64,000 bases of DNA from Alphaproteobacteria bacterium UBA2903 (GTDB lineage Bacteria > Pseudomonadota > Alphaproteobacteria > CAAGCB01 > CAG-977), in NCBI GenBank assembly GCA_002349565.1, contig DEDN01000035.1:74812-138811 (forward strand), in the 5' to 3' direction. The notes under the pieces are model-generated. The model saw nothing but the letters and a program-made list of their open reading frames with translations. It searched no databases and was not told the origin of the DNA. Positions 52,006 through 64,000 of the stretch are shown in pieces (the first letter of the stretch is position 1; each line of letters opens with the position of its first letter). The translations under genes and the position numbers were made by a program.

Positions 52006-53247
52006 TTAAACCCCTTCGCGGAAAACATCCGGATAAACGTAAGACTTGTCTGCGTAATTGTGCAGACGCAGATTTTCGCCGTCGATGCCGTCAACGTAGT
52101 TTGGCAGCAACGGTACTTTGCCGCCGCCGTTCGGAGCGTCGATCACATAGTGCGGCACAGCGTATCCGGAAATGAAGCCGCGCAGATGCTTGATGATGTC
52201 CAGTCCCGTCTGAACGGGCGTTCTGAAATGACGGGATCCGGGGACGGGGTCGCATTGATAAATGTAATACGGTTTGACGCGGAAAGAGAGCAAGCCCATC
52301 ATCAGCTTGCGCATCGTTTCCGGATCGTCGTTGACGCCTTTGAGCAAAACGGTCTGGGAGCCGATCGGCATACCGGCATCGGCCAGCCGTTCGCAAGCGG
52401 CTTTCATCTCCGGCGTCAGTTCGTCGGGATGGGTCGCGTGGATACTGACAAAGACGGGATGATACTTGGCGACCATATGGACCAGACGCGTCGTGATGCG
52501 CTGGGGCAGAACGGCTGTCGTCTTCGTCCCGAGCCGGATGATCGAAACGTGCGGGATCGCGCGCAGACGGGCTAACAGTTTTTCAAGCGTTTCCGTCGGC
52601 AAAGTCAGCGGATCGCCGCCCGATACGACGACGTCCTGCACTTCCTCGTGTTCGGCGATGTATTGGATTGCCTGCTCCCAGTAATCGTGTTTGCATTCGT
52701 GATGCGTCGCGCCGATCAGACGGGAACGGGTGCAATAACGGCACGCCGTACTGCAAAAATCGGTCGACAGGAACAAGATGCGGTTCGGATAGCGGTGAAC
52801 CAATCCTTTGACGGGACTGTCGCGGTCTTCGCTCAGCGGATCGACTTTTTCTTCGGGCGAGATATCGTATTCGTCGGAAACGGGAATGACGCAACGGCGC
52901 AACGGCTGTGTCGGATCGTCGGGATCAAGCAAACTCATATAGTAGGGCGTGATCGCGACGGGAAAGCCTTTCTTTCCGTGTTCAAGCGCGCGGGCTTCGC
53001 TGTCGGTCAGATGCAGGACCCGTTCGATGTCGGCTTTTTTGCGGAATCTGTTGCGGATCTGCCAACGCCAGTCGTTCCATTGGGCTTCGGTGGTCTGCGG
53101 AAAATAAGTGTGCAGAAAACGGCGGGATCTGTCGGAGATAACGTGTTCCGAATGGTTGTGGGGAAGAGGGGAAGACGGAGGTTCTTCGGAAGATTCTTGC
53201 GTTTCTTCCGTCATCGGCTGTTCGGGAGCCGGAAAAGTCGTGTCCAT
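52006..53247 (-). CDS. kamA: Lysine 2,3-aminomutase (radical SAM, KamA family)
   Basis: The radical SAM motif CSTACRYC is present. The length (413 aa) and conserved regions (PVKGLVHRYPNRILFL, VSGGDPL) match KamA, and there is an acidic/Pro-rich N-terminal extension. Confidence 0.8.
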   Translation of the reverse strand: MDTTFPAPEQPMTEETQESSEEPPSSPLPHNHSEHVISDRSRRFLHTYFPQTTEAQWNDWRWQIRNRFRKKADIERVLHLTDSEARALEHGKKGFPVAITPYYMSLLDPDDPTQPLRRCVIPVSDEYDISPEEKVDPLSEDRDSPVKGLVHRYPNRILFLSTDFCSTACRYCTRSRLIGATHHECKHDYWEQAIQYIAEHEEVQDVVVSGGDPLTLPTETLEKLLARLRAIPHVSIIRLGTKTTAVLPQRITTRLVHMVAKYHPVFVSIHATHPDELTPEMKAACERLADAGMPIGSQTVLLKGVNDDPETMRKLMMGLLSFRVKPYYIYQCDPVPGSRHFRTPVQTGLDIIKHLRGFISGYAVPHYVIDAPNGGGKVPLLPNYVDGIDGENLRLHNYADKSYVYPDVFREGV

Positions 53248-53356: not shown

Positions 53357-54028
53357 ATGCGGGAAGCAGTCGATAAAACACAAGATGATTTGCCTTTTTT
53401 GTTTTTGCGGAAAAGCTATGCCGATTATGAAAAGGCGGTCGTAAAATGTGATGATTTGCTGGCGAAAAATCCGTCGGACGCGACCGCTTATTATATCCGT
53501 TCGATGGCGCGGTTCGGTATGGCGTCATTGGTTCCGACGAAATTCATCGGTGATGAAACCGTTTCGGAAAAGCGGATCGATGCCGTTTGCCGTGAAAACG
53601 CGGACACTTTTCAAAAAATCAGAAAGCGGCTTTCGGCGGAAGCGCAAAAAGACCCGAATAATAAAGATCATCTCATTTCGGAACTGACTTTCGGATTTTG
53701 GGCTTATCTTTTTTCCTCCGCCTACAAGAAAGCGTTATGGAGCAAGCATCCGACCTTGTTGAAGGAAATCTTCGACTGCACGAAGGAAACGCTTGTTTCG
53801 GGGCGCGTTTACGAACGTGTCAACAGAATACGTATGTATAGGAACAAGGTGTTTCATTACGGTTCTTTGATAACGGTAACGGATGCTTTGAACGAACCGG
53901 CGAGAATCCACAATATGATTTACAAGCTGATTCGCGATATGAACGCTAACTCGGTTCTGAAACAAATAAAGGAAATCGACCGCTTTAACGAGGAATACAC
54001 CAAAGGACGCCGGTTGGGATTTTTGTAA
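53357..54028 (+). CDS. Abi_2/HEPN-like abortive-infection family protein
   Basis: ELTFGFWAYLF resembles the Abi_2 LSFGEL motif. An Rx4H HEPN motif (RNKVFH) is present. The protein is 223 aa. Confidence 0.45.
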   Translation: MREAVDKTQDDLPFLFLRKSYADYEKAVVKCDDLLAKNPSDATAYYIRSMARFGMASLVPTKFIGDETVSEKRIDAVCRENADTFQKIRKRLSAEAQKDPNNKDHLISELTFGFWAYLFSSAYKKALWSKHPTLLKEIFDCTKETLVSGRVYERVNRIRMYRNKVFHYGSLITVTDALNEPARIHNMIYKLIRDMNANSVLKQIKEIDRFNEEYTKGRRLGFL

Positions 54029-54150
54029 AGGCAACAGAAAAGAGGCGTCAACTACAATCAGACCGAAATCCTGCTTAAAAAAGCTTAATGTAGTATATAG
54101 CCTCTCTATCTGAAAGAAAATATAAGGTTATCCCAGCCGTTTGTCAAGCG

Positions 54151-55155
54151 TTATCGTTTGGCGGGTCTGCCTTTGCCGCGCCGTCCGACCGTTTGAAGCC
54201 CCCATCCGTTCGCCAGTCGCGCCGCTTCCTGTATCTGATTTTCGGAAGCGAACTCAAATCCTTTTTCTTTCGCTTTTTGAATCAAAGCCCGTTCGACGAC
54301 TTTGTTTTCCGGAATGTTGTCGGCGGTGTAGCCGTTTTCCTCTATCACTTCGGCGACAAGGGCAAGCAACGGCGGCAAGGAGGATCTTTTTCTCACCGGT
54401 TTTGCCTCCTCGTATTTGAACAAAGGCGGATTCACGGGCGGACAAACGCGCATCAGCTCTTTCGTATCGACCTCTATTTCCGCAAAGCCCCGTAAAAAGC
54501 GCGATACTCTGTTGCGCTTCAAATCCAGCTTGAAATCGGCGATCGCGCCCATCGTTCCGTAAGTGATGACCGGATAACGCGCGTCTTCGACGGAAGTTTC
54601 CTTGCCGAACAGTTTGCGGTATCGCTTTAATCGCAAAGTTTGCCAATCGGGAACCGGAATATCGCCTTCCTCAAACTCGGCGTCGGGATCGAAACACTCG
54701 AAATCGAAACGTCCCGCTTTGTGGCAATACCGCGCTTTGAAGTGATACACTTTCCGGCAGACGCCGTTGAAATGAAACGCCTGAAGATTTTCTAACCATT
54801 CGTAATACAAAAATCTGACCGGAAGCTTCGTTCTCGGGTGAAGCAACCGCGTCAAGCCGATCAGGAAGCAGAGCAACACCATCAAACAGCGCGTGAAAAG
54901 CCACATCGTCAGCGTGTCCGCTCCGAAAAAGAAAGCGTAACGCCCGGTTATGGCGACTTTTTGCGTTTTAATCAGCACTTTTAATTTGTCTTTCGCCGCC
55001 CGTAAAAGCTTTTTTTGATACGGATAGGCGTCGCGGTAAACGTTCTTGAATTCCTCATCGGTCGGCGGATAACCGAACGCCACCCATTCGCACGCTTCCA
55101 GCAAAGTGCAGGTCGGCTTTATCGGTATTTCTATTTCTTCAAATCCTGTCGCCAT
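54151..55155 (-). CDS. Hypothetical protein (334 aa)
   Basis: A strong RBS (aagggggaaacgATG) is present. There is one hydrophobic segment and no recognised domain. Confidence 0.5.
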   Translation of the reverse strand: MATGFEEIEIPIKPTCTLLEACEWVAFGYPPTDEEFKNVYRDAYPYQKKLLRAAKDKLKVLIKTQKVAITGRYAFFFGADTLTMWLFTRCLMVLLCFLIGLTRLLHPRTKLPVRFLYYEWLENLQAFHFNGVCRKVYHFKARYCHKAGRFDFECFDPDAEFEEGDIPVPDWQTLRLKRYRKLFGKETSVEDARYPVITYGTMGAIADFKLDLKRNRVSRFLRGFAEIEVDTKELMRVCPPVNPPLFKYEEAKPVRKRSSLPPLLALVAEVIEENGYTADNIPENKVVERALIQKAKEKGFEFASENQIQEAARLANGWGLQTVGRRGKGRPAKR

Positions 55156-55967
55156 CGTTTCCCCCTTATTCTTTCTCAAGAAAGGATAAGAAGGCCGTTG
55201 AAGGAAATCAACTTGTTGATTTTTATCGGTTTTTTGATTTTGATTGATTTTAATTGATGCCGGTCGAAAACGATTAAAAACGGGATAAAGTTTTTCTCAA
55301 ATTGCTTTTTGCGCTAGAAAGACGTATCATCTTTAACGAAGCGGGAACTGGAAAAGGTTTTCGTTTTTCAGAGGTTGCTTTCAAAGGATAAAACACGCTT
55401 CGGGATTGTTACTGGGACGTTACCTTGAAAACGGTTTCTAAAAAGTCAAAAAAACAAATAAGACAGGATTTTTTATTTAAGTTCAAACGGTTATCAAAAC
55501 ACATTCCCCGAAAAAAATTGATTTTTCAAAATCGGGGAGGTTTTGACGTATGTTCAGATTCCACCCCTTCCGGTCGGAATTAAAGGTCTTAACGATCATT
55601 CCACATAGTGATTTTCGAACTCCCCGCTATGACTTTAAAGTATTGCCGCTTTTTTGTCGGAAAGTTTTAACCGTTTGAATTTAAAACGGATTTCAGCGTT
55701 TTTTCTGCTTCGATTTTAGCAAGCCCTATTTTCAAGGTAACAGCACGGTAACAAAAATTCCATATTTGCCCGCCTTGGAAAGCAACCTCAATTTGTCGCC
55801 GTTGATTGCTCTATGACGCCATCAATCAAGGTACGTCTTTTTTCCGATTCCGTCAAGCCGCATGCAAAAGACTCAAAAAGCTCCCAAAAGCACCATTTTG
55901 AACGGTTCCTCTTTGATTTGTTTCATGCCACCGTAAAGGCGTTTGAAATCAATCAAAGGAGTTCGTT

Positions 55968-56210
55968 ATGGAAATCAGGAAAGAATATTTAACGCGCGGA
56001 CAAGCGGCTGAATACTGCATCAAACAGGGCTTGCCCGTCAGCCAGAAAACTTTGGCGAAATACGCGTGCGTCGGCGGCGGACCGAAGTTCCGCAAGTTCG
56101 GGACAATGCGCGTCGTCTATAAAATCACCGACTTGGACGAATGGATTGAGCAGCGCTTGTCCGACACTTTTGCGGCGACGGGAATCCCTTGCGGCGGAGA
56201 TGACGCATGA
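55968..56210 (+). CDS. AlpA/Xis-family HTH DNA-binding protein (third paralog)
   Basis: The sequence MEIRKEYLTRGQAAEYCIKQGLPVSQKTLAKYACVGGGPKFRKFGTMRVVYKITDLDEWI is collinear with the proteins at 44664-44882 and 48709-48933. Confidence 0.6.
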   Translation: MEIRKEYLTRGQAAEYCIKQGLPVSQKTLAKYACVGGGPKFRKFGTMRVVYKITDLDEWIEQRLSDTFAATGIPCGGDDA

Positions 56211-56415
56211 CGGACTTTGCGGACTTGTTTTTCCGTTCGTCGAAAACACCGAAAGAAGCGAGTGCAGGATACTCGTAATACGCTCCGGCTCTGCGAGGCA
56301 CAATCAGAAGTGCGTTTTTTATGGAAAGCGTAATTTCCGGAAGTTGTTTTTTTACGGCTTGTTTTTGCGGCGGTGAACTTTTAGAATAGCGTATTCTTTC
56401 GGTTGAATCGTAGGG

Positions 56416-57894
56416 GTGAAAATGATAACGGGTGTCATAAAAAACAAAATCGACAATATTTGGACGATCATCTGGGCGGGCGGAATAACCAATCCGATTA
56501 CAGTGATTGAACAGCTGACTTATTTGATGTTTATTCACGATTTGGACGTCAAAGAGCTTGAAACGGAGCGGTTGGAAAACCTGACGCATACGAAAATGGA
56601 AAGGATTTTTCCGCAAACACCTGCGGGACAGGCGTTAAGGTGGCACAATTTCAAAGACAAGAACGCCGCCGAGATTTTTGCGACTTTAAAAGACCGCGTT
56701 TTCCCGTTTATCAAAAACGAGTTGGGTAAAGACGAGCAGTCCGCTTTTTCCCGTTACATGAGCGACGCTCTGTTTTTGTTTCCCACGCCGCAGATTGTTG
56801 AAAGAGTCGTTACGGGATTGGACGATTTGTATCAACACGACCTTTCGGGGTTGGACGTTCAGGGCGACTTGTACGAATATATGCTGGATAAATTGGCGAC
56901 TTCCGGAAAAAACGGGCAATTCAGAACACCGGCGCAAATCCGCAACATGATGGTTCGCCTGATCGAACCGACGCCGGATTCAAAGATTTGCGATCCGGCG
57001 TGCGGCACGGCGGGCTTTTTGATTTCAAGCGCGGAGTTTATTCGTTCCAAATATGAAAACGTGATGACTTCGGAACAATGGGATCACTTTGCGGGCGATA
57101 TGTTCAGCGGGTTCGATATGGACAAGACGATGTTGCGAATTTCCGCAATGAACCTGATGCTTCATTCAATCACAACGCCGACGATCGAATATCGGGACAG
57201 CGTTTCCAAAACGAACGACATCGCCGAAGAATACGACATCGTACTGGCAAACCCGCCGTTTGCGGGAACGATCGACAAAGAAGGCGTCAGCGACGATTTG
57301 AAACGCGTCTGCAATACGACGAAAACGGAACTGCTGTTTATCGCTTTGTTTTTAAGAATGTTGAAAAAGGGCGGTCGTTGCGCCTGCATCGTCCCCGACG
57401 GCGTTTTGTTCGGCACGACCAAAGCCCACCAATCCCTGCGCAAGGAACTGATTGAAAACCATAAATTGCAAGCCGTGATTTCCATGCCGTCGGGGGTGTT
57501 CAAACCCTATTCCGGCGTTTCGACAGCCGTTCTGGTCTTTACCAAGACGGGCGCGGGCGGCACGGACAAGGTTTGGTTTTACGATATGAACGCCGACGGG
57601 TTCAGTCTGGACGACAAGCGCAATCCCGTTGAGGAAAACGACATTCCGGACATTCTGGCGCGGTTTCATAATTTGGCGGGCGAAACGTCGCGCGCCCGCA
57701 CGGAACAAAGCTTCTTCGTCCCTAAATCCGAAATTGAACAAAACAATTACGATTTGTCGATCAACCGGTATAAAGAAGTCGTCCACGAAAAAATCGAATA
57801 CGACAAACCCGACGTTATCTTGACCCGCATCGACACCCTCATCGCCGACATCGCGGCGCAAACGAAAAAAGTCAGAGAAATGCTCAATGGATGA
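56416..57894 (+). CDS. hsdM: Type I restriction-modification system methyltransferase subunit HsdM
   Basis: An HsdM N-domain and an N6-adenine MTase core (DPACGTAGFL, LANPPFAG) are present. Confidence 0.9.
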   Translation: MKMITGVIKNKIDNIWTIIWAGGITNPITVIEQLTYLMFIHDLDVKELETERLENLTHTKMERIFPQTPAGQALRWHNFKDKNAAEIFATLKDRVFPFIKNELGKDEQSAFSRYMSDALFLFPTPQIVERVVTGLDDLYQHDLSGLDVQGDLYEYMLDKLATSGKNGQFRTPAQIRNMMVRLIEPTPDSKICDPACGTAGFLISSAEFIRSKYENVMTSEQWDHFAGDMFSGFDMDKTMLRISAMNLMLHSITTPTIEYRDSVSKTNDIAEEYDIVLANPPFAGTIDKEGVSDDLKRVCNTTKTELLFIALFLRMLKKGGRCACIVPDGVLFGTTKAHQSLRKELIENHKLQAVISMPSGVFKPYSGVSTAVLVFTKTGAGGTDKVWFYDMNADGFSLDDKRNPVEENDIPDILARFHNLAGETSRARTEQSFFVPKSEIEQNNYDLSINRYKEVVHEKIEYDKPDVILTRIDTLIADIAAQTKKVREMLNG

Positions 57895-58471
57895 TACTGT
57901 TTTAATAAACAGCCTGAAAAATGCTGTTGAACAGCTTTATGAAAAAGATGCGTATTTGTTGCACAGCAACCACGAATTGCACGAGCAAACCGTTTCGCAT
58001 AGATTGGCGGTGTATTTGGAAAACAATTTAAGAAAATTCTCTATATTCCGAGAAAACGACTTTTCTGTTGATTGCGAATATAACAAAAACGGAAAGAAGT
58101 TAAAAATAGTTTCTTGTTATAGCTGCCCTAATAGAGATTGCGTTTTATTAGAAAACAGATCTTTTGAAAAAATAAACTGTGTTCGTCCGGACATTATCGT
58201 TCATAAAAGAGGGAATAATTTTCCGACAAATTTATTGATAGTTGAATTAAAAAAGAAAACAAACAAAAATTTTAATGAAAAATATAAAGATAAAATGAAA
58301 TTATCCGCTTTCACTTGTCAAAGACAGGAAGACGAAAAACATCATTACCAATACCAACTTGGCTTTTTTATTGAATATAGTGGTAAAGCGATGGCTTTAC
58401 AGGAATTTAAAAACGGAAAAGAAACAGCTGTTTATAGCTTTGATGCCGAAACAAAAAAATGGACAGATTGA
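57887..58471 (+). CDS. Restriction-linked ORF: small PD-(D/E)xK nuclease-fold protein inserted between hsdM and hsdS
   Basis: The AT-rich ORF overlaps the hsdM stop by 8 nt (ATGGATGA). The motif ...CVRPDIIVHK...LLIVELKKK fits PD...(D/E)xK. Confidence 0.55.
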   Translation: MDDTVLINSLKNAVEQLYEKDAYLLHSNHELHEQTVSHRLAVYLENNLRKFSIFRENDFSVDCEYNKNGKKLKIVSCYSCPNRDCVLLENRSFEKINCVRPDIIVHKRGNNFPTNLLIVELKKKTNKNFNEKYKDKMKLSAFTCQRQEDEKHHYQYQLGFFIEYSGKAMALQEFKNGKETAVYSFDAETKKWTD

Positions 58472-58472
58472 T

Positions 58473-59561
58473 ATGAACAAATGGAAAAAAGTTAAATTAG
58501 GAAAGCAATTAAAACGCATTAGAACAGGAAAACTTGATGCAAATGCATCAAGTGAAAATGGGATATATCCTTTCTTTACTTGCTCTGTATTTCCACTAAA
58601 AATAGGGACGTACAGCTATGATTGTGAATGTGTACTTGTTGCAGGGAATGGAGATTTAAATGTAAAATATTACAATGGAAAATTCGATGCTTATCAAAGG
58701 ACGTACATACTTGAAGTTTTAGATAAAAATATTTTAAATACACGATATTTTTATTATTTTATGAAAGATTACATTGATATTTTAAGAACCAAAACAAAAG
58801 GAGGGGTTATTAAATATATTCGCCTTAATGATATAGCAGATGCGGAAATCCCTCTGCCGGCGATGGAGGAGCAGAAGAAAATCGCGGCGCGGTTGGACGC
58901 CGTTTCCGATTTGCTGGCAAAACAAAAACAACTGCTGTCCGAACAAGACAACCTGATCCAATCCCTCTTTTACGATATGTTTTTAAAACAAAATTTCTCT
59001 AAACGAAAAATCGTAGATTTTGTTGAAACCGATGTGAAAAATGCAAAAAAAATATTTAATAAAAATAACTTTATTAAATATATTGATATTTCGTCAATAG
59101 ATAATAATTCAAATATCATAACAGGTTATACACATATCGAGTTTTGTGATGCTCCATCCAGAGCGCAACAAGTCGTCAAAAAAAATGATATCCTTGTTTC
59201 AACAGTAAGACCTAATCTGAAAAATATTGCTTTAATAAAGTTTAACGATAATAATCTTGTTGCCTCTTCTGGTTTTTGCGTATTACGAGCTAAAAATATA
59301 GAACCTGTTTTTTTGCTATACAATGTTCTTTCTCAGGATTTTACAGAAAAAATGGTAAGTGCTGTAACGGGAGCGAACTATCCTGCTATTAAAAATTCAG
59401 ATATTTTAAATTATAAGATTCCTGTTCCTCCTCTTGAATTACAGGAAAAATTTGCGGCGATCGTCGAACAAATCGAATCCGAAAAATCGAAAATCAAATC
59501 CGCCATCGCCGAAACCCAAACCCTTTTCAACGCCCTAATGTCTGAATATTTTGAGGATTAA
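58473..59561 (+). CDS. hsdS: Type I R-M specificity subunit HsdS
   Basis: Two target-recognition regions are separated by conserved HsdS coiled-coil repeats (LPLPAMEEQKKIAARLDAVSDLL; LPVPPLELQEKFAAIVEQIE). Confidence 0.85.
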   Translation: MNKWKKVKLGKQLKRIRTGKLDANASSENGIYPFFTCSVFPLKIGTYSYDCECVLVAGNGDLNVKYYNGKFDAYQRTYILEVLDKNILNTRYFYYFMKDYIDILRTKTKGGVIKYIRLNDIADAEIPLPAMEEQKKIAARLDAVSDLLAKQKQLLSEQDNLIQSLFYDMFLKQNFSKRKIVDFVETDVKNAKKIFNKNNFIKYIDISSIDNNSNIITGYTHIEFCDAPSRAQQVVKKNDILVSTVRPNLKNIALIKFNDNNLVASSGFCVLRAKNIEPVFLLYNVLSQDFTEKMVSAVTGANYPAIKNSDILNYKIPVPPLELQEKFAAIVEQIESEKSKIKSAIAETQTLFNALMSEYFED

Positions 59562-59562
59562 A

Positions 59563-61353
59563 ATGGATATAGAAAGTAAAGCCGTCTCAGCGATAAATGA
59601 TAAAATTGCAGATATTAACAGACTGAAATCTTTTATAACGCAAAATGACAAGACGCCCGCTTATGATGGCTCTATAGCAATTTATAAAAATGATAGCACT
59701 AAAAATGAAAACATGGATTCTTCCGTTCGCGTTCAAGTAAAAGGACGTGAAACAGATGATTTGTCTTTAAAAAATATTGAATATCCAGTTGATATATCTA
59801 ATTTAAAAATATACCTAAATGACGGTGGCGTTTTATTTTTTGTTGTCCTTATTCACAAGGAAACAAAAGAAACAAAAATATATTACAACTCTCTGCTTCC
59901 GTTTAAAATCAATTTTCTACTTAAAAATTTAAGAAAATCACAAAAAACAAAAAGCATTACCTTAAAAAGGTTTCCACAAAGTGAAAATGACATCATTGAG
60001 TTGCTTGTGAATTTTTCAAGAGATTCAAGCAAACAATGTAATGTGTGCAATATAGGCGTTTTATCATTAGAAGAATTAAAAAATAGAAACGAGCCAATTT
60101 GTAACTTACAAAGTTTTTATTATGCAACAAAAGGGAATACCTCTTCTGCGCCAGATCGTATTTTTGAAAAAGAGATATACCAATATGCTGTCAGCGCGAC
60201 AGGTGTTTTTTATCCGATAGCTCAATTTTCTCTTTCAGAAATATTACAAGATGTAACTGCTAATGTAATTTGCAAAAACAAAAAAGTATTCGAAAAATTT
60301 GTCATAAAACGAACGAACAATAGTATTTATATTATTATCGGAGAGAGCATAACACTTAATTTAGAAAAAGATGCGCTAACAAATGGAGGGACTGCAATTA
60401 TTACATTTTCTCCTCATGGTAGCATTTCAAATAGAATTAAAGCGTCAAATCTCATGCTTGATATTCTTAATGAAAACGAAGTTCAAATTGGAGACGCAAA
60501 AATATTAAACATCTCAAAAGAAAATCCGTCCCCAATTGATGAAAATGAGATTAAGAAAAATATATCTTTCTTAGAAAATGTTCAAAAAGCTTGTGTTAAA
60601 GCTGGTATAGACGCTGAAAATATTTCAGAAGAAATTGTTTTCGATGTGCAAACTCTTCAATTTTTAATAGATGTTTTTATAAAAAATGAGCCTAAATCCT
60701 TAGAAACAAATGTTTCTGAAAAAGAAAGTTTTGGCTTACTATCAATAGGTCAGAAAAATATGAAGCTTTTGATTTTCGCAAAAAACATTCATGATAAAAT
60801 ATATAAAATAAGCAATTATTTTTATGCAGATTTCTCCTCTGTAATGAAAAATGACAATGGTTTAGAATACGCAGTAAGCAGATATGTCCCATTAAAAAAG
60901 GAACATTTTGCAAAAGCATTAAATATTCAATACGATGAAATTGCTGAAGATGTTTTTAAATATAAGCATACTGAACAATATCATTACAATGTGACGCTAA
61001 TGTTACTTGAAATGATTAAAGCGTTTGATGAAACAGGTACTACCGCATTATATAAAGCAATAATAGATGTTGCGGAATGGTTACAAAAATTTAATGGGAC
61101 GGAAAAAGAGAAAGATTTAAGCGACATCAATTATATTCAGTGCAAAAAACGGAAAGAACCTATCAATGATACGGATAAATTGACGTTATATAGAATATGT
61201 GAGAAAAACGTAGAAGAAGACATCAAGCTTGCATGTTACATTCTTCTTGATATGAAAGAAAAAGCAAAAGAGGTTTTTGACAATCTCGATTCGAAAACAA
61301 AAGAAATTTTCGAAAAATTCCCCATTTATACGCTTTATAAAAAAATGTTTTAA
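59563..61353 (+). CDS. Restriction-linked ORF: 596-aa AT-rich protein, possible Mrr/DUF4365-like N-terminal nuclease domain
   Basis: The start is immediately after the hsdS stop, with a GAGGA RBS. The N-terminus has YDGSIAIY...VRVQVKGRE (a D...QxK pattern). The remainder is unrecognised. Confidence 0.5.
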   Translation: MDIESKAVSAINDKIADINRLKSFITQNDKTPAYDGSIAIYKNDSTKNENMDSSVRVQVKGRETDDLSLKNIEYPVDISNLKIYLNDGGVLFFVVLIHKETKETKIYYNSLLPFKINFLLKNLRKSQKTKSITLKRFPQSENDIIELLVNFSRDSSKQCNVCNIGVLSLEELKNRNEPICNLQSFYYATKGNTSSAPDRIFEKEIYQYAVSATGVFYPIAQFSLSEILQDVTANVICKNKKVFEKFVIKRTNNSIYIIIGESITLNLEKDALTNGGTAIITFSPHGSISNRIKASNLMLDILNENEVQIGDAKILNISKENPSPIDENEIKKNISFLENVQKACVKAGIDAENISEEIVFDVQTLQFLIDVFIKNEPKSLETNVSEKESFGLLSIGQKNMKLLIFAKNIHDKIYKISNYFYADFSSVMKNDNGLEYAVSRYVPLKKEHFAKALNIQYDEIAEDVFKYKHTEQYHYNVTLMLLEMIKAFDETGTTALYKAIIDVAEWLQKFNGTEKEKDLSDINYIQCKKRKEPINDTDKLTLYRICEKNVEEDIKLACYILLDMKEKAKEVFDNLDSKTKEIFEKFPIYTLYKKMF

Positions 61354-61781
61354 AACACTTCAAAAAACTTTCTGAAAATCGGCGGCAATTCTTTTGACGT
61401 TTTCGCGCCGTTCTGGATGCGCCGCAAAATTTCGTCCGAAACGGTGCATTTATAACGGAAGCTTTGCGCCAGCTGTTTTTTGACGACGTCACTTTGCTTT
61501 ACCGCCTTTGCCCATTCGTATCGCGCGAACGACGGTTTAATGATAACGCCCCGCCCGTCGTCCGCCGTGATTTCGCCGATATCGAAAGTACAAGCGTCGT
61601 CGTAGTATTTGCATGCCTGCCCGTTATAAGAATAACGCCCGTTTTCTTGGAATTTAATAGAAGAAATCGGAATGACCAGCATTTCATCGTCCGCGTTTAT
61701 ATCGGACGCGATAACGATATAATGCGGCGCTTCGGCATTTGGAACGTCCGCGAAAAAGCAAACGCCCTTACAATGCATCAT
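61350..61781 (-). CDS. Putative toxin partner of the Panacea-domain antitoxin (unknown family)
   Basis: The 143-aa ORF overlaps the upstream Panacea gene by 14 nt. No known domain is recognised. Confidence 0.4.
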   Translation of the reverse strand: MMHCKGVCFFADVPNAEAPHYIVIASDINADDEMLVIPISSIKFQENGRYSYNGQACKYYDDACTFDIGEITADDGRGVIIKPSFARYEWAKAVKQSDVVKKQLAQSFRYKCTVSDEILRRIQNGAKTSKELPPIFRKFFEVF

Positions 61782-62304
61782 TCAAGCCGCAAACAAATTC
61801 ATATTCTTCTTTGGCTTCGCGGATTTCCGCGTCACTGCGTCCCAAAGCGCGCATAATGTCGCAATAGCGGATTTTTTTGCTGCTGTTTTGCGGATCATGC
61901 CATTCGGGCAGATTTTTATGCGTATAATCTTCCAACTGAAAGGAAGTGTAATGTCTGAACCGTTCGGAAACGGTCGAGATATATTCCTTGTCCTTTTCGC
62001 TGAGCAGGGCAAGCTCTGTTTCCTTTTTGACGGCGATGTCGTTGTAGTATTTGGCGGGCAGGCTTTCCAGCCATTCGCCCCACTCCGAACCGTTTAAATC
62101 GTTCAGCATATTCAGCGTCAAGCTCAAAACGGGACCGTGTTTCATGCTGAAAAAAATGTCGCCCGAAACCGACGTGTCGCGTTCCGCAATGGCTTCGCGG
62201 TCAATCAGATACAATTCTTTCATCAGTTTCAGCAAATTCATTTTGCCGCCGTTCAAACCCAGCAGATAAACGATTTCCTGCAAAACCTTGTCAGATGAAA
62301 ACAT
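61768..62304 (-). CDS. Panacea (DUF4065/SocA-like) domain antitoxin-like protein
   Basis: IVYLLGLNGGKMNLLKLMKELYLIDREAIAERDTSVSGDIFFSMKHGPVLS matches the Panacea/SocA pattern. The start is taken at ATG 62304. Confidence 0.6.
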   Translation of the reverse strand: MFSSDKVLQEIVYLLGLNGGKMNLLKLMKELYLIDREAIAERDTSVSGDIFFSMKHGPVLSLTLNMLNDLNGSEWGEWLESLPAKYYNDIAVKKETELALLSEKDKEYISTVSERFRHYTSFQLEDYTHKNLPEWHDPQNSSKKIRYCDIMRALGRSDAEIREAKEEYEFVCGLNDAL

Positions 62305-62445
62305 AATGCGCGCCTTCCATTCGATTAAGCAACATAACATATATAAGCTTGCTTTACAAAAAAAAATCGAAAAAATCAAAAAACATTTGCCAAAGGTTCA
62401 AACGCAGTTTTACACTTGTAACACTTTGATTGAACGGGGGAAAGC

Positions 62446-64000
62446 ATGGCGAATTTTTCGTTTTTGACAGTGCGAAAGGAATACGTTTTATTCGCCCCCG
62501 CTTGTTTGGAAGCCGAAAAGGTTTTCAAAACCTCCCCCGTTTTGTGCGCTATCGGTTGCCGCAAGGCTTTGGAATTGGCGGTCAAGTGGGTGTACACAGC
62601 CGACAAATCCCTTACCCCGCCTTATAAAGACAACCTTTCCGCTTTGATTTACGAAGACTGTTTCCGTCAAGCCGTTGACGAAGCGACGTGGAAAAAGCTG
62701 AACTATGTCGTCAAGCTGGGAAACCTTGCCGTTCATACGAATAAAACCATTGATGTCGGCGAAGCGTATCAGGCTTTGACGACTTTGTTCGAGTTCGTTC
62801 AATGGCTGGATTACAGCTACGGGCGCGAATACCGGCGCAGAACGTTTGACGCGGCGCAAATTCCCGCCTTGTCTGTCGTTGTTGATGTCGAAAAAGTCAA
62901 AAAACAGGAAGCCCTGCTGGTTCAAAAACAGGCGGAGATCGAACGCTGTCAGGCGGAAATCGCCGCCCAAGCCGAAGAACTTTCCGCCCTGAAAACCGAA
63001 AACCGGAAAAAGCGCGTGTTCGTTCCGACCGATATTTCCGAATGGGAAACGCGCAAACGCTACATCGACCTTGATTTAAAGCTGATGGATTGGGATTTCG
63101 ATCACTTTGTCGGGCAGGAAATCGAAGTCGATAACATGGCGGGCGTCTCCGGTCAGAAGGGATATGTCGATTATGTCCTGTTCGGACAGGACGGCGCGCC
63201 TTTGGCGGTCGTTGAAGCCAAACGGACAAGCAAGGATCCGAATGTCGGAAAACAGCAGGCGAAACTGTACGCCGACGCGTTGGAAAAGCAATACGGCGTC
63301 CGCCCGATGATATTCACGACGAACGGATTTGAAACGTATTTCTGGGACGACTTAGCCGCGCCTCAACGTCCCGTTTTTTCCGTATTCAGTCAGGACGATC
63401 TGGCTCGTCGTATGGCGCGCAGAAATTCCGACATCCGCTTGAAAGGCGTTAAAATCGATACGGCCATCACGAACAGGCCTTATCAGTTGCAGGCGATCGC
63501 CGCCGTCTGCGACCGTTTCGAAAAAGGATTCCGCCGCGCTTTGCTGGTAATGGCGACCGGAACGGGAAAAACGCGCACGGTCATCAGTCTGGTCGATGTG
63601 CTGATGCGCGGGAATTACGTTAAAAACGTCCTGTTTCTGGCGGATCGCCGCGCTTTGGTCGGACAGGCGAAGGAAAATTTTCAGGCTTTCCTGCCGGACG
63701 CTTCCCTGTGCGACCTGTTGTCCGCCAAAGACAATAAAAACGCCCGCATCGTTTTTTCGACTTACCCGACCATATTGAACGCCATTGACGACGTGAAGAA
63801 CGACAAAAACGAACGGTTGTTCACACCGGCGCATTTCGATTTGATCATCGTGGACGAAGCGCACCGCAGCATTTTTAAAAAATACAAGGTCATTTTCGAT
63901 TATTTCGACGCGCCGATCGTCGGGTTGACCGCTACGCCGAAAACGGAAGTCGACCGGAACACTTACGATTTTTTTGAAGTGCCGCACGACAATCCGACTT
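62446..64000 (+). CDS. hsdR: Type I restriction enzyme R subunit HsdR, N-terminal part (runs off window end)
   Basis: ATG 62446 follows a GGGGGAAAG RBS. An N-terminal DUF4145-like region (ALELAVKWVY) is followed by SF2 helicase motifs (LVMATGTGKT, IIVDEAHRS). The frame is open to position 64000, which is why it is absent from the ORF track. Confidence 0.85.
   Translation, partial: MANFSFLTVRKEYVLFAPACLEAEKVFKTSPVLCAIGCRKALELAVKWVYTADKSLTPPYKDNLSALIYEDCFRQAVDEATWKKLNYVVKLGNLAVHTNKTIDVGEAYQALTTLFEFVQWLDYSYGREYRRRTFDAAQIPALSVVVDVEKVKKQEALLVQKQAEIERCQAEIAAQAEELSALKTENRKKRVFVPTDISEWETRKRYIDLDLKLMDWDFDHFVGQEIEVDNMAGVSGQKGYVDYVLFGQDGAPLAVVEAKRTSKDPNVGKQQAKLYADALEKQYGVRPMIFTTNGFETYFWDDLAAPQRPVFSVFSQDDLARRMARRNSDIRLKGVKIDTAITNRPYQLQAIAAVCDRFEKGFRRALLVMATGTGKTRTVISLVDVLMRGNYVKNVLFLADRRALVGQAKENFQAFLPDASLCDLLSAKDNKNARIVFSTYPTILNAIDDVKNDKNERLFTPAHFDLIIVDEAHRSIFKKYKVIFDYFDAPIVGLTATPKTEVDRNTYDFFEVPHDNPT

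Follow-up and report, generated by a model that had tools for sequence, protein, structure and literature searches.

A type I restriction-modification operon with swappable cargo slots carries two predicted nucleases and a Panacea-domain gene pair on a putative mobile island

Why should a type I restriction-modification (R-M) operon hold genes that encode none of its own enzyme subunits between hsdM, hsdS and hsdR? We addressed this question for the hsd locus at the right-hand end of a 64,000-nt stretch of DNA (hereafter the window) from contig DEDN01000035.1 of Alphaproteobacteria bacterium UBA2903 (positions 74,812 to 138,811, forward strand), in which genes for two predicted nucleases, of 194 and 596 amino acids (aa), and a toxin-antitoxin-like gene pair with a Panacea domain lie among the hsd genes. 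The explanation that we favour, with a probability of roughly 0.6, is that an EcoAI-like type I operon on a mobile island of an uncultured gut bacterium is a scaffold for three separate cargo modules inserted at gene junctions. Each module would act alone as second-line or abortive defence, and would gain co-expression and co-transfer from the operon instead of serving as a subunit of the restriction enzyme.

The open reading frame (ORF) map gave the order hsdM, 194-aa gene, hsdS, 596-aa gene, 143-aa gene, Panacea gene (these two on the minus strand) and finally hsdR, with all seven genes at the positions given in an initial annotation made from the sequence alone. The genes are as follows.

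56416/56422-57894, plus strand: hsdM, type I methyltransferase subunit (N6_Mtase, E = 5.1e-64; HsdM_N, 2.1e-11; PADLOC MTase_I, 7.5e-182)
57887-58471, plus strand: gene for the predicted 194-aa PD-ExK nuclease, slot 1 (PADLOC PD-Lambda-3_A, 3.6e-12)
58473-59561, plus strand: hsdS, specificity subunit (Methylase_S, 1.7e-29 in two stretches; PADLOC Specificity_I, 3.4e-51)
59563-61353, plus strand: gene for the 596-aa protein, slot 2 (predicted DUF4365/DREN-type head, beta-rich middle, TPR-like helical C-terminus)
61350-61781, minus strand: gene for the 143-aa partner of the Panacea protein, a putative toxin (position beside the Panacea gene)
61768-62304, minus strand: gene for a 178-aa Panacea-domain (PanA/SocA-like) antitoxin candidate (SocA_Panacea, 3.8e-18)
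62446..64000, plus strand: hsdR, N-terminal 518 aa, running past the window end (DUF4145, HSDR_N, ResIII; PADLOC REase_I, 7.7e-79)

These profile matches identify the locus as an EcoAI-like type I R-M operon. The nearest NCBIfam family of HsdR is EcoAI (E = 2.5e-53), and the score of its 518-aa fragment, 181.6, stays under the 550-bit cut-off because the gene is truncated by the window end. HsdS has two variable target-recognition domains around a conserved centre, and its C-terminal segment is also conserved. The start of hsdM is probably the ATG at 56422, which gives a protein of 490 aa, and an alternative start of the Panacea gene at 62340 would give 190 aa.

When the junctions were read from the sequence, the four plus-strand genes from hsdM to the 596-aa gene proved to be tightly packed: one junction is an overlap of 8 nt, and the other two leave a gap of 1 nt each. 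The 194-aa gene has its ATG within hsdM (ATGGATGA; overlap 8 nt), as had been described, and the gap between its TGA and the hsdS ATG is a single base, not the 2 nt given before. A single base likewise separates hsdS from the 596-aa gene, a coupling that had been missed. The 596-aa and 143-aa genes are convergent with a 4-nt overlap, and the 143-aa gene shares 14 nt with the Panacea gene. The GC content at third codon positions (GC3) is 0.30 in the 194-aa gene, 0.28 in hsdS and 0.23 in the 596-aa gene, the last figure agreeing with the AT-richness already remarked upon, versus 0.63 in both hsdM and hsdR, which confirms that the block from the 194-aa gene to the 596-aa gene is foreign in origin. 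A scan for promoters and terminators found sites no more numerous than in shuffled sequence, so we claim no transcript boundaries.

The inserted ORFs are real genes, with 432 homologues for the 194-aa protein, 2,864 cluster representatives for the 596-aa protein and 7 homologues for the 143-aa protein. That the inserts might be pieces of a second hsdS or hsdR, a possibility raised in the initial annotation, was ruled out: searches with Pfam, NCBIfam and PADLOC gave zero Methylase_S or HSDR matches, and the inserts belong to large independent families.

The same operon is held by gut-metagenome contigs, numbered here L008 to L014, in which HsdM is 98% and HsdR 94-98% identical to the window proteins; the full-length HsdR orthologues there are 1118 aa long and carry EcoEI_R_C. 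Another locus, L023, is more divergent, with about 82% DNA identity. Around the nearly constant hsdM and hsdR the remaining positions are occupied as follows.

Slot 1, between hsdM and hsdS: the 194-aa gene in the window, L018 and L025; a 266-aa AbiJ_NTD4 protein in L008 and L011-14; a SieB-like protein of 183-200 aa in L009 and L010; a 620-aa AAA_15/21 ATPase in L023
hsdS: HsdS of the sister loci only 36-38% identical
Slot 2, between hsdS and hsdR: members of the 596-aa family at 95%, 86%, 46% or 43% identity; in L023 a pair of 203 aa and 109 aa instead
Slot 3, upstream of hsdR: the Panacea pair in some loci, absent from L011-14 and L018

Cargo is thus exchanged in a mosaic manner among near-identical operons. 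At the DNA level, blocks at 55531-57882, 58846-58981 and from 59418 onward are conserved between loci, and variable DNA occupies 57883-58845, which spans the slot 1 gene and the first recognition domain, and 58982-59417, which corresponds to the second, with breakpoints at the 3' end of hsdM, in the central conserved region of hsdS and at the 3' end of hsdS. This pattern of conserved and variable blocks indicates that the cargo rides on the recombination that reshuffles hsdS, and the finding of differing cargo between near-identical hsdM and hsdR genes leads us to regard the operon as a scaffold with swappable slots. The locus illustrates clearly how a restriction operon can serve in nature as a plug-in rack. 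Because the same positions are taken by differing abortive-infection or nuclease genes in near-identical operons, operon position becomes a usable predictor of defence function, and by this measure the 596-aa nuclease family and the orphan 143-aa partner of the Panacea protein stand out as concrete candidates.

The embedding of defence genes in type I R-M operons has been published before, so that no new principle is involved here. PrrC of the E. coli prr locus, the rlo genes of Campylobacter jejuni and TgvAB of VPI-2 in Vibrio cholerae are documented cases, and type IV systems are known inside both type I and BREX loci (PMC11411939). On a larger scale, the "guilt-by-embedding" survey of Payne et al. 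counted 17,432 genes, in 3,231 families, embedded in BREX, DISARM or R-M systems (bioRxiv 10.1101/2024.01.29.577857). The suspected likeness of the locus to prrC- and rlo-type additions holds, in that foreign, co-oriented genes stand between hsd genes, the occupants vary, and the cargo is of nuclease or abortive-infection type. Equally, the inserts do not look like PrrC or RloC, as had been pointed out: the three embedded proteins gave no ATPase/AAA domain and no Walker A motif in Pfam, NCBIfam and PADLOC searches and a motif scan, and the cargo thus differs from PrrC/RloC in having no ABC ATPase/anticodon nuclease. It also differs from RloF/TgvB, having no DUF262/GmrSD. Unlike the named embeddings, this operon has three slots filled at once, one of them with an opposite-strand toxin-antitoxin-like pair.

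The gene in slot 1 encodes a 194-aa protein that the PADLOC profile PD-Lambda-3_A matches across 137 residues. Neither Pfam nor NCBIfam assigned it to a family, a PDB sequence search gave no match, and none of its 432 homologues is named. In 35 aligned family members, D62, C63, E64, Y65 and K122 are invariant, and P101, D102, H106, R108, G109, E120 and K123 are near-invariant; family members also gave weak, repeated matches to TnsA, BsuBI/PstI, Hjc, VRR-NUC and PDDEXK_3. The residues P101-D102 and E120-x-K122 form a textbook PD...ExK arrangement, which supports the assignment as a PD-(D/E)xK nuclease; together with the PD-Lambda-3_A match it also supports the earlier reading of the motif as that of a nuclease. 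A CxxC...C insertion (C77, C80, C85) is found in the subclade of 194-226 aa and is absent from the relatives of 150-180 aa; the three cysteines and the invariant C63 could form a zinc site.

The profile match places the 194-aa protein next to a system of established function. PD-lambda-3, described from E. coli ECOR28 by Vassallo et al. in 2022 and labelled "Nuclease, HEPN" in their supplement, comprises three genes; it works via abortive infection and was later employed as an abortive-infection control (PMC13190303). We found the 2,759-bp PD-lambda-3 trio on the E. coli plasmid NZ_ON934556, beside brxL (BREX), where its genes encode a 159-aa hypothetical protein, a TIGR02391 protein and a "restriction endonuclease". 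The window protein is 27% identical to the 159-aa product of the first gene, from which it differs by the Cys-rich insertion that the short relatives do not have. Components B (TIGR02391/HEPN-like) and C (restriction-endonuclease-like) matched none of the proteins encoded at 53357-64000 in PADLOC, Pfam and NCBIfam searches, so the window has component A only. With the first component alone present, the locus is not a PD-lambda-3 system and holds instead a relative of one part of it. Judged by this kinship, the 194-aa protein is related to a single component of an abortive-infection system that has been validated, and is not the new kind of effector that had been suggested.

Relatives of the 194-aa protein occur in varied surroundings: a 43%-identical relative stands alone beside DUF2130, others stand alone on Xanthomonas and Photobacterium plasmids, one lies within a Kiwa-Gabija-CBASS island of Sphingobacterium, one has a metabolic setting, and one is found amid transposases and a group II intron. 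Two relatives lie in convergent orientation beside an operon of ThiF plus JAB/MPN that is like those of CBASS type II (L028, 4965-5447, Xanthomonas pXCV183; L153, 6001-6528, Sphingobacterium), a pairing that could be due to chance or be recurrent.

The 596-aa protein of slot 2 had likewise been put forward as a novel effector, and here the picture required correction: it is a member of a DUF4365-nuclease family of very large size. Of 1.84 billion representatives compared in a profile search, 2,864 matched at E <= 1e-3 and 1,470 at E <= 1e-30, nearly all of them 580-610 aa long and aligned end to end. By comparison, a word-based search for relatives found 7, and a genome-collection scan with a narrow alignment found only 4 loci. 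The window protein matches phrog_9827 at 6.7e-62; a PADLOC search gave nothing, and no characterised member was found in the literature searched. Among 39 diverse members with a mean identity of about 27%, D35, G36, Q58 and K60 are invariant and E4 and D29 near-invariant, so that D35, Q58 and K60 supply the conserved D...(E/Q)xK of DUF4365/DREN. Pfam DUF4365 (PF14280) was matched by 22 of the 39 full-length members (best E 5.9e-8), and plasmid homologues carry the annotation "DUF4365 domain-containing protein". The AlphaFold model (pLDDT, the predicted local distance difference test score, 73.5) is good from residue ~330, and a Foldseek search with it gave nothing significant. On these family-level features the 596-aa protein is predicted to begin with a DREN-type nuclease head, to continue with a beta-rich middle and to end in a TPR-like tail. 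One family member, P0146 (793 aa), has a 196-aa N-terminal extension; the lone DUF1016_N match among the scanned members presumably belongs to it, in which case the extension would be another nuclease-associated module joined to this family.

In SPARDA, DUF4365 is the effector nuclease called DREN, whose monomer is inactive and which tetramerisation activates (PMC12205087); DUF4365 is also the N-terminal domain in the integron-borne Divona defence cassette (bioRxiv 10.1101/2024.07.02.601686). With SPARDA DREN and Divona the 596-aa protein shares an N-terminal DUF4365-type PD-(D/E)xK domain with the conserved D...QxK, fused to a larger non-catalytic region, and by analogy this region could regulate the DUF4365 domain. 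The difference from SPARDA is that the 596-aa protein has neither APAZ nor an Argonaute partner and is a single gene product with a beta-rich region and a TPR-like repeat; no APAZ domain or short prokaryotic Argonaute (pAgo) gene was detected in the protein or its neighbours with Pfam, NCBIfam and PADLOC. We suggest that the tail might bind a phage-derived cue or drive oligomerisation, and that its action would turn on an otherwise inactive nuclease head, much as tetramerisation does for DREN in SPARDA.

The genomic surroundings of the family bear on its role. Relatives of the 596-aa protein were found alone on plasmids, phages and phage-plasmids. A distant member (26-29% identity) in a Bacteroidales genome lies within a tight same-strand type III R-M run, in the order SNF2 helicase, DUF4391, 596-aa homologue, type III Mod, type III Res, PDC-S11, and a second distant member, of the same range of identity, is located on another contig downstream of a HindI-like type I HsdR. 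In all, three independent associations with R-M systems were seen among about 12 genomic contexts inspected, which ties the family to R-M systems in a suggestive, not a statistical, sense. We tentatively propose, with less than even confidence, that this family of ~590-aa proteins with a DUF4365 head and a TPR tail is an undescribed single-gene anti-phage system, in which sensing of a phage protein by the tail would activate the nuclease, and which R-M operons of types I and III may have captured repeatedly to gain a second defence layer. As a candidate single-gene defence system, the family is the most useful lead from this locus.

The recurrence of the family inside R-M clusters of differing types would also be expected if the 596-aa protein were a modification-dependent, type IV-like endonuclease, like TgvAB or BrxU, directed against phages with modified DNA that escape the type I enzyme. 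Its PD-(D/E)xK head would suit such a role, type IV systems have been published inside type I and BREX loci (PMC11411939), and the same slot holds a GmrSD gene in the related locus L035. The rest of the protein does not fit, however: no known modified-base reader domain was found with Pfam, NCBIfam or PADLOC, the C-terminus resembles a TPR protein-binding repeat and not a DNA reader, and DUF4365 has so far been known as a collateral, non-specific nuclease (PMC12205087). We therefore consider a type IV-like function unlikely, and prefer to view the 596-aa protein as cargo with its own sensor.

Could one or both nucleases instead be held latent by the Hsd complex itself, to be triggered once the type I enzyme has been put out of action by an anti-restriction protein of a phage, and so act as the anti-anti-restriction factors suggested in the initial annotation? 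The established precedent for a guard of this kind is PrrC, from the prr locus of E. coli (PMC11411939). The nesting of the 194-aa gene between hsdM and hsdS, and the position of the 596-aa gene one base past hsdS, would match the expression of both nucleases to that of M and S. Yet neither nuclease has the ATPase sensor domain of PrrC/RloC, relatives of both are found without hsd genes, the 596-aa family also occurs within a type III R-M cluster, and unrelated proteins take the same slot in loci whose HsdM is 98% identical. The occurrence of relatives of the 194-aa and 596-aa proteins away from hsd genes supports the idea that the cargo may be autonomous. This autonomy of the cargo families and the swapping of slots make guarding by the Hsd complex less likely, and we rate it as quite improbable next to a scaffold that carries independent modules.

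The third module is the pair on the minus strand, which had been called a Panacea toxin-antitoxin-like pair. The Panacea protein matches SocA_Panacea with 66.9 bits against a cut-off of 25.7 and phrog_1281 at 8e-22, and is 100% identical in L008-L010. Its partner of 143 aa has only 7 homologues, at 60-99% identity, and matches phrog_19071 at 6e-7. All three of the 143-aa relatives whose context was inspected (3/3) lie beside a Panacea gene within an hsd locus, and the pair stays together in L008-L010, L023 and L025. Tblastn of the 143-aa protein against phage and plasmid collections gave no match, nor did Pfam (E up to 10) or the PDB. A match to eL27 in a PDB profile search was judged to be chance only. 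A MazF/PemK-like fold was not supported: the N-terminus (GVCFFADVP...PHYIVIASD...LVIPISS) resembles EndoA by eye, but the hhalign probability against an approximate alignment of EndoA, MazF and Kid was 0.15%.

PanA proteins neutralise many unrelated toxins via direct binding, and some of these toxins have no database matches (PMC8832971). As in PanAT (Kurata et al. 2022) and SocAB, the Panacea-domain gene in the window lies directly upstream of, and overlaps, a gene for a small unrelated partner. Given that PanA partners are diverse and some lack database matches, the layout of the pair fits published PanAT, and the earlier description is borne out to that extent, with toxicity as a prediction. 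The pair differs from PanAT in that the 143-aa partner matches no described toxin family and in that, in the contexts inspected, it is limited to hsd loci of one bacterial clade. We propose that the Panacea protein would restrain the putative 143-aa toxin until infection or loss of the island frees it. Many gene calls in the 143-aa cluster start at the internal Met34, which gives 110 aa. The 143-aa form that overlaps the Panacea gene is probably the real one, since residues 1-33 are strongly conserved in the homologues of 65-70% identity.

Two observations concern the mobility of the locus. Downstream of hsdR, the sister loci contain an AAA_14/DUF4143 ATPase and a tyrosine integrase (L008, 16336-18732; L011, 15321-17981), and the hsd block adjoins different housekeeping genes in different contigs, for example on the left flanks of L009 and L008. 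The integrase downstream and the differing chromosomal sites suggest that the block belongs to a mobile integrative island whose right end would lie past the window.

Such mobility invites the thought that the cargo is selfish, the Panacea pair being an addiction module that stabilises the island and both nucleases helping their carrier cassettes to move or recombine. The mosaic exchange, the foreign composition, the integrase and the changing insertion sites would all suit this, as would the 596-aa relatives on plasmids and phage-plasmids and the 194-aa relative amid transposases and a group II intron. Against it, slot 1 is otherwise filled by genes from classic families of abortive infection (AbiJ- and SieB-like); a defence system that has been validated draws one of its components from the 194-aa family; and one member of that family lies in the Kiwa-Gabija-CBASS island. 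Purely selfish cargo is thus the explanation to which we give the lowest weight, a very unlikely one, and a scaffold for separate defence modules is retained as the preferred interpretation.

Several points nevertheless weigh against that interpretation. For all three modules the defence role is a prediction from sequence. The very tight coupling of the 194-aa gene to hsdM and hsdS equally fits a physical partnership of its product with the methyltransferase. The 596-aa protein of the window itself falls under the Pfam DUF4365 threshold (no PF14280 match), and residues 1-72 of its AlphaFold model are poor (pLDDT < 50); with its own Pfam match absent and its N-terminus badly modelled, it is called a nuclease from the family-level matches and the conserved residues. 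The roughly 12 contexts of the 596-aa family fall short of a statistical enrichment test. Finally, the 143-aa protein matches no known toxin, and its AlphaFold model, built from 8 sequences, is unusable (pLDDT 45); since no relative among known toxins was detectable and the model could not help, the toxin label was taken from its position.

On the left-hand side of the operon two further genes were noted, the first of which is listed here.

55968..56210, plus strand: gene for an 80-aa helix-turn-helix protein, AlpA/excisionase-like (Pfam HTH_17, E = 5e-4, under the family cut-off)

This gene falls within the conserved left DNA block (55531-57882) and precedes hsdM in most sister loci; in L008 and L011-L014 it is 97-99% identical and in the same place. 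Further upstream, at 53357-54028 on the plus strand, lies a gene for a 223-aa protein with a PADLOC match to PD-T4-5 (1.2e-6) and no Pfam family. The defence island may begin at this gene (53357) and not at hsdM, because the fall in GC content by which the island is marked sets in near 53000.

Beyond the sister loci, a metagenome scan with a conserved hsdM 17-mer recovered about 100 related hsd loci, and the cargo genes of the window were in none of them. Gaps of more than 400 nt were present at 17 of 60 hsdM-hsdS junctions and at half of the hsdS-hsdR junctions (13/26). These large gaps mostly held extra hsdS copies and a 321-aa recombinase, not defence genes; the truly foreign inserts were GmrSD, AAA_21, Schlafen/AlbA_2 and HipA-like genes. 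Extra full or half copies of hsdS together with the conserved recombinase of about 321 aa were seen in L056, L062, L076, L082, L087, L094, L110, L120 and L138, and these multi-hsdS loci look like a phase-variable hsdS shufflon.

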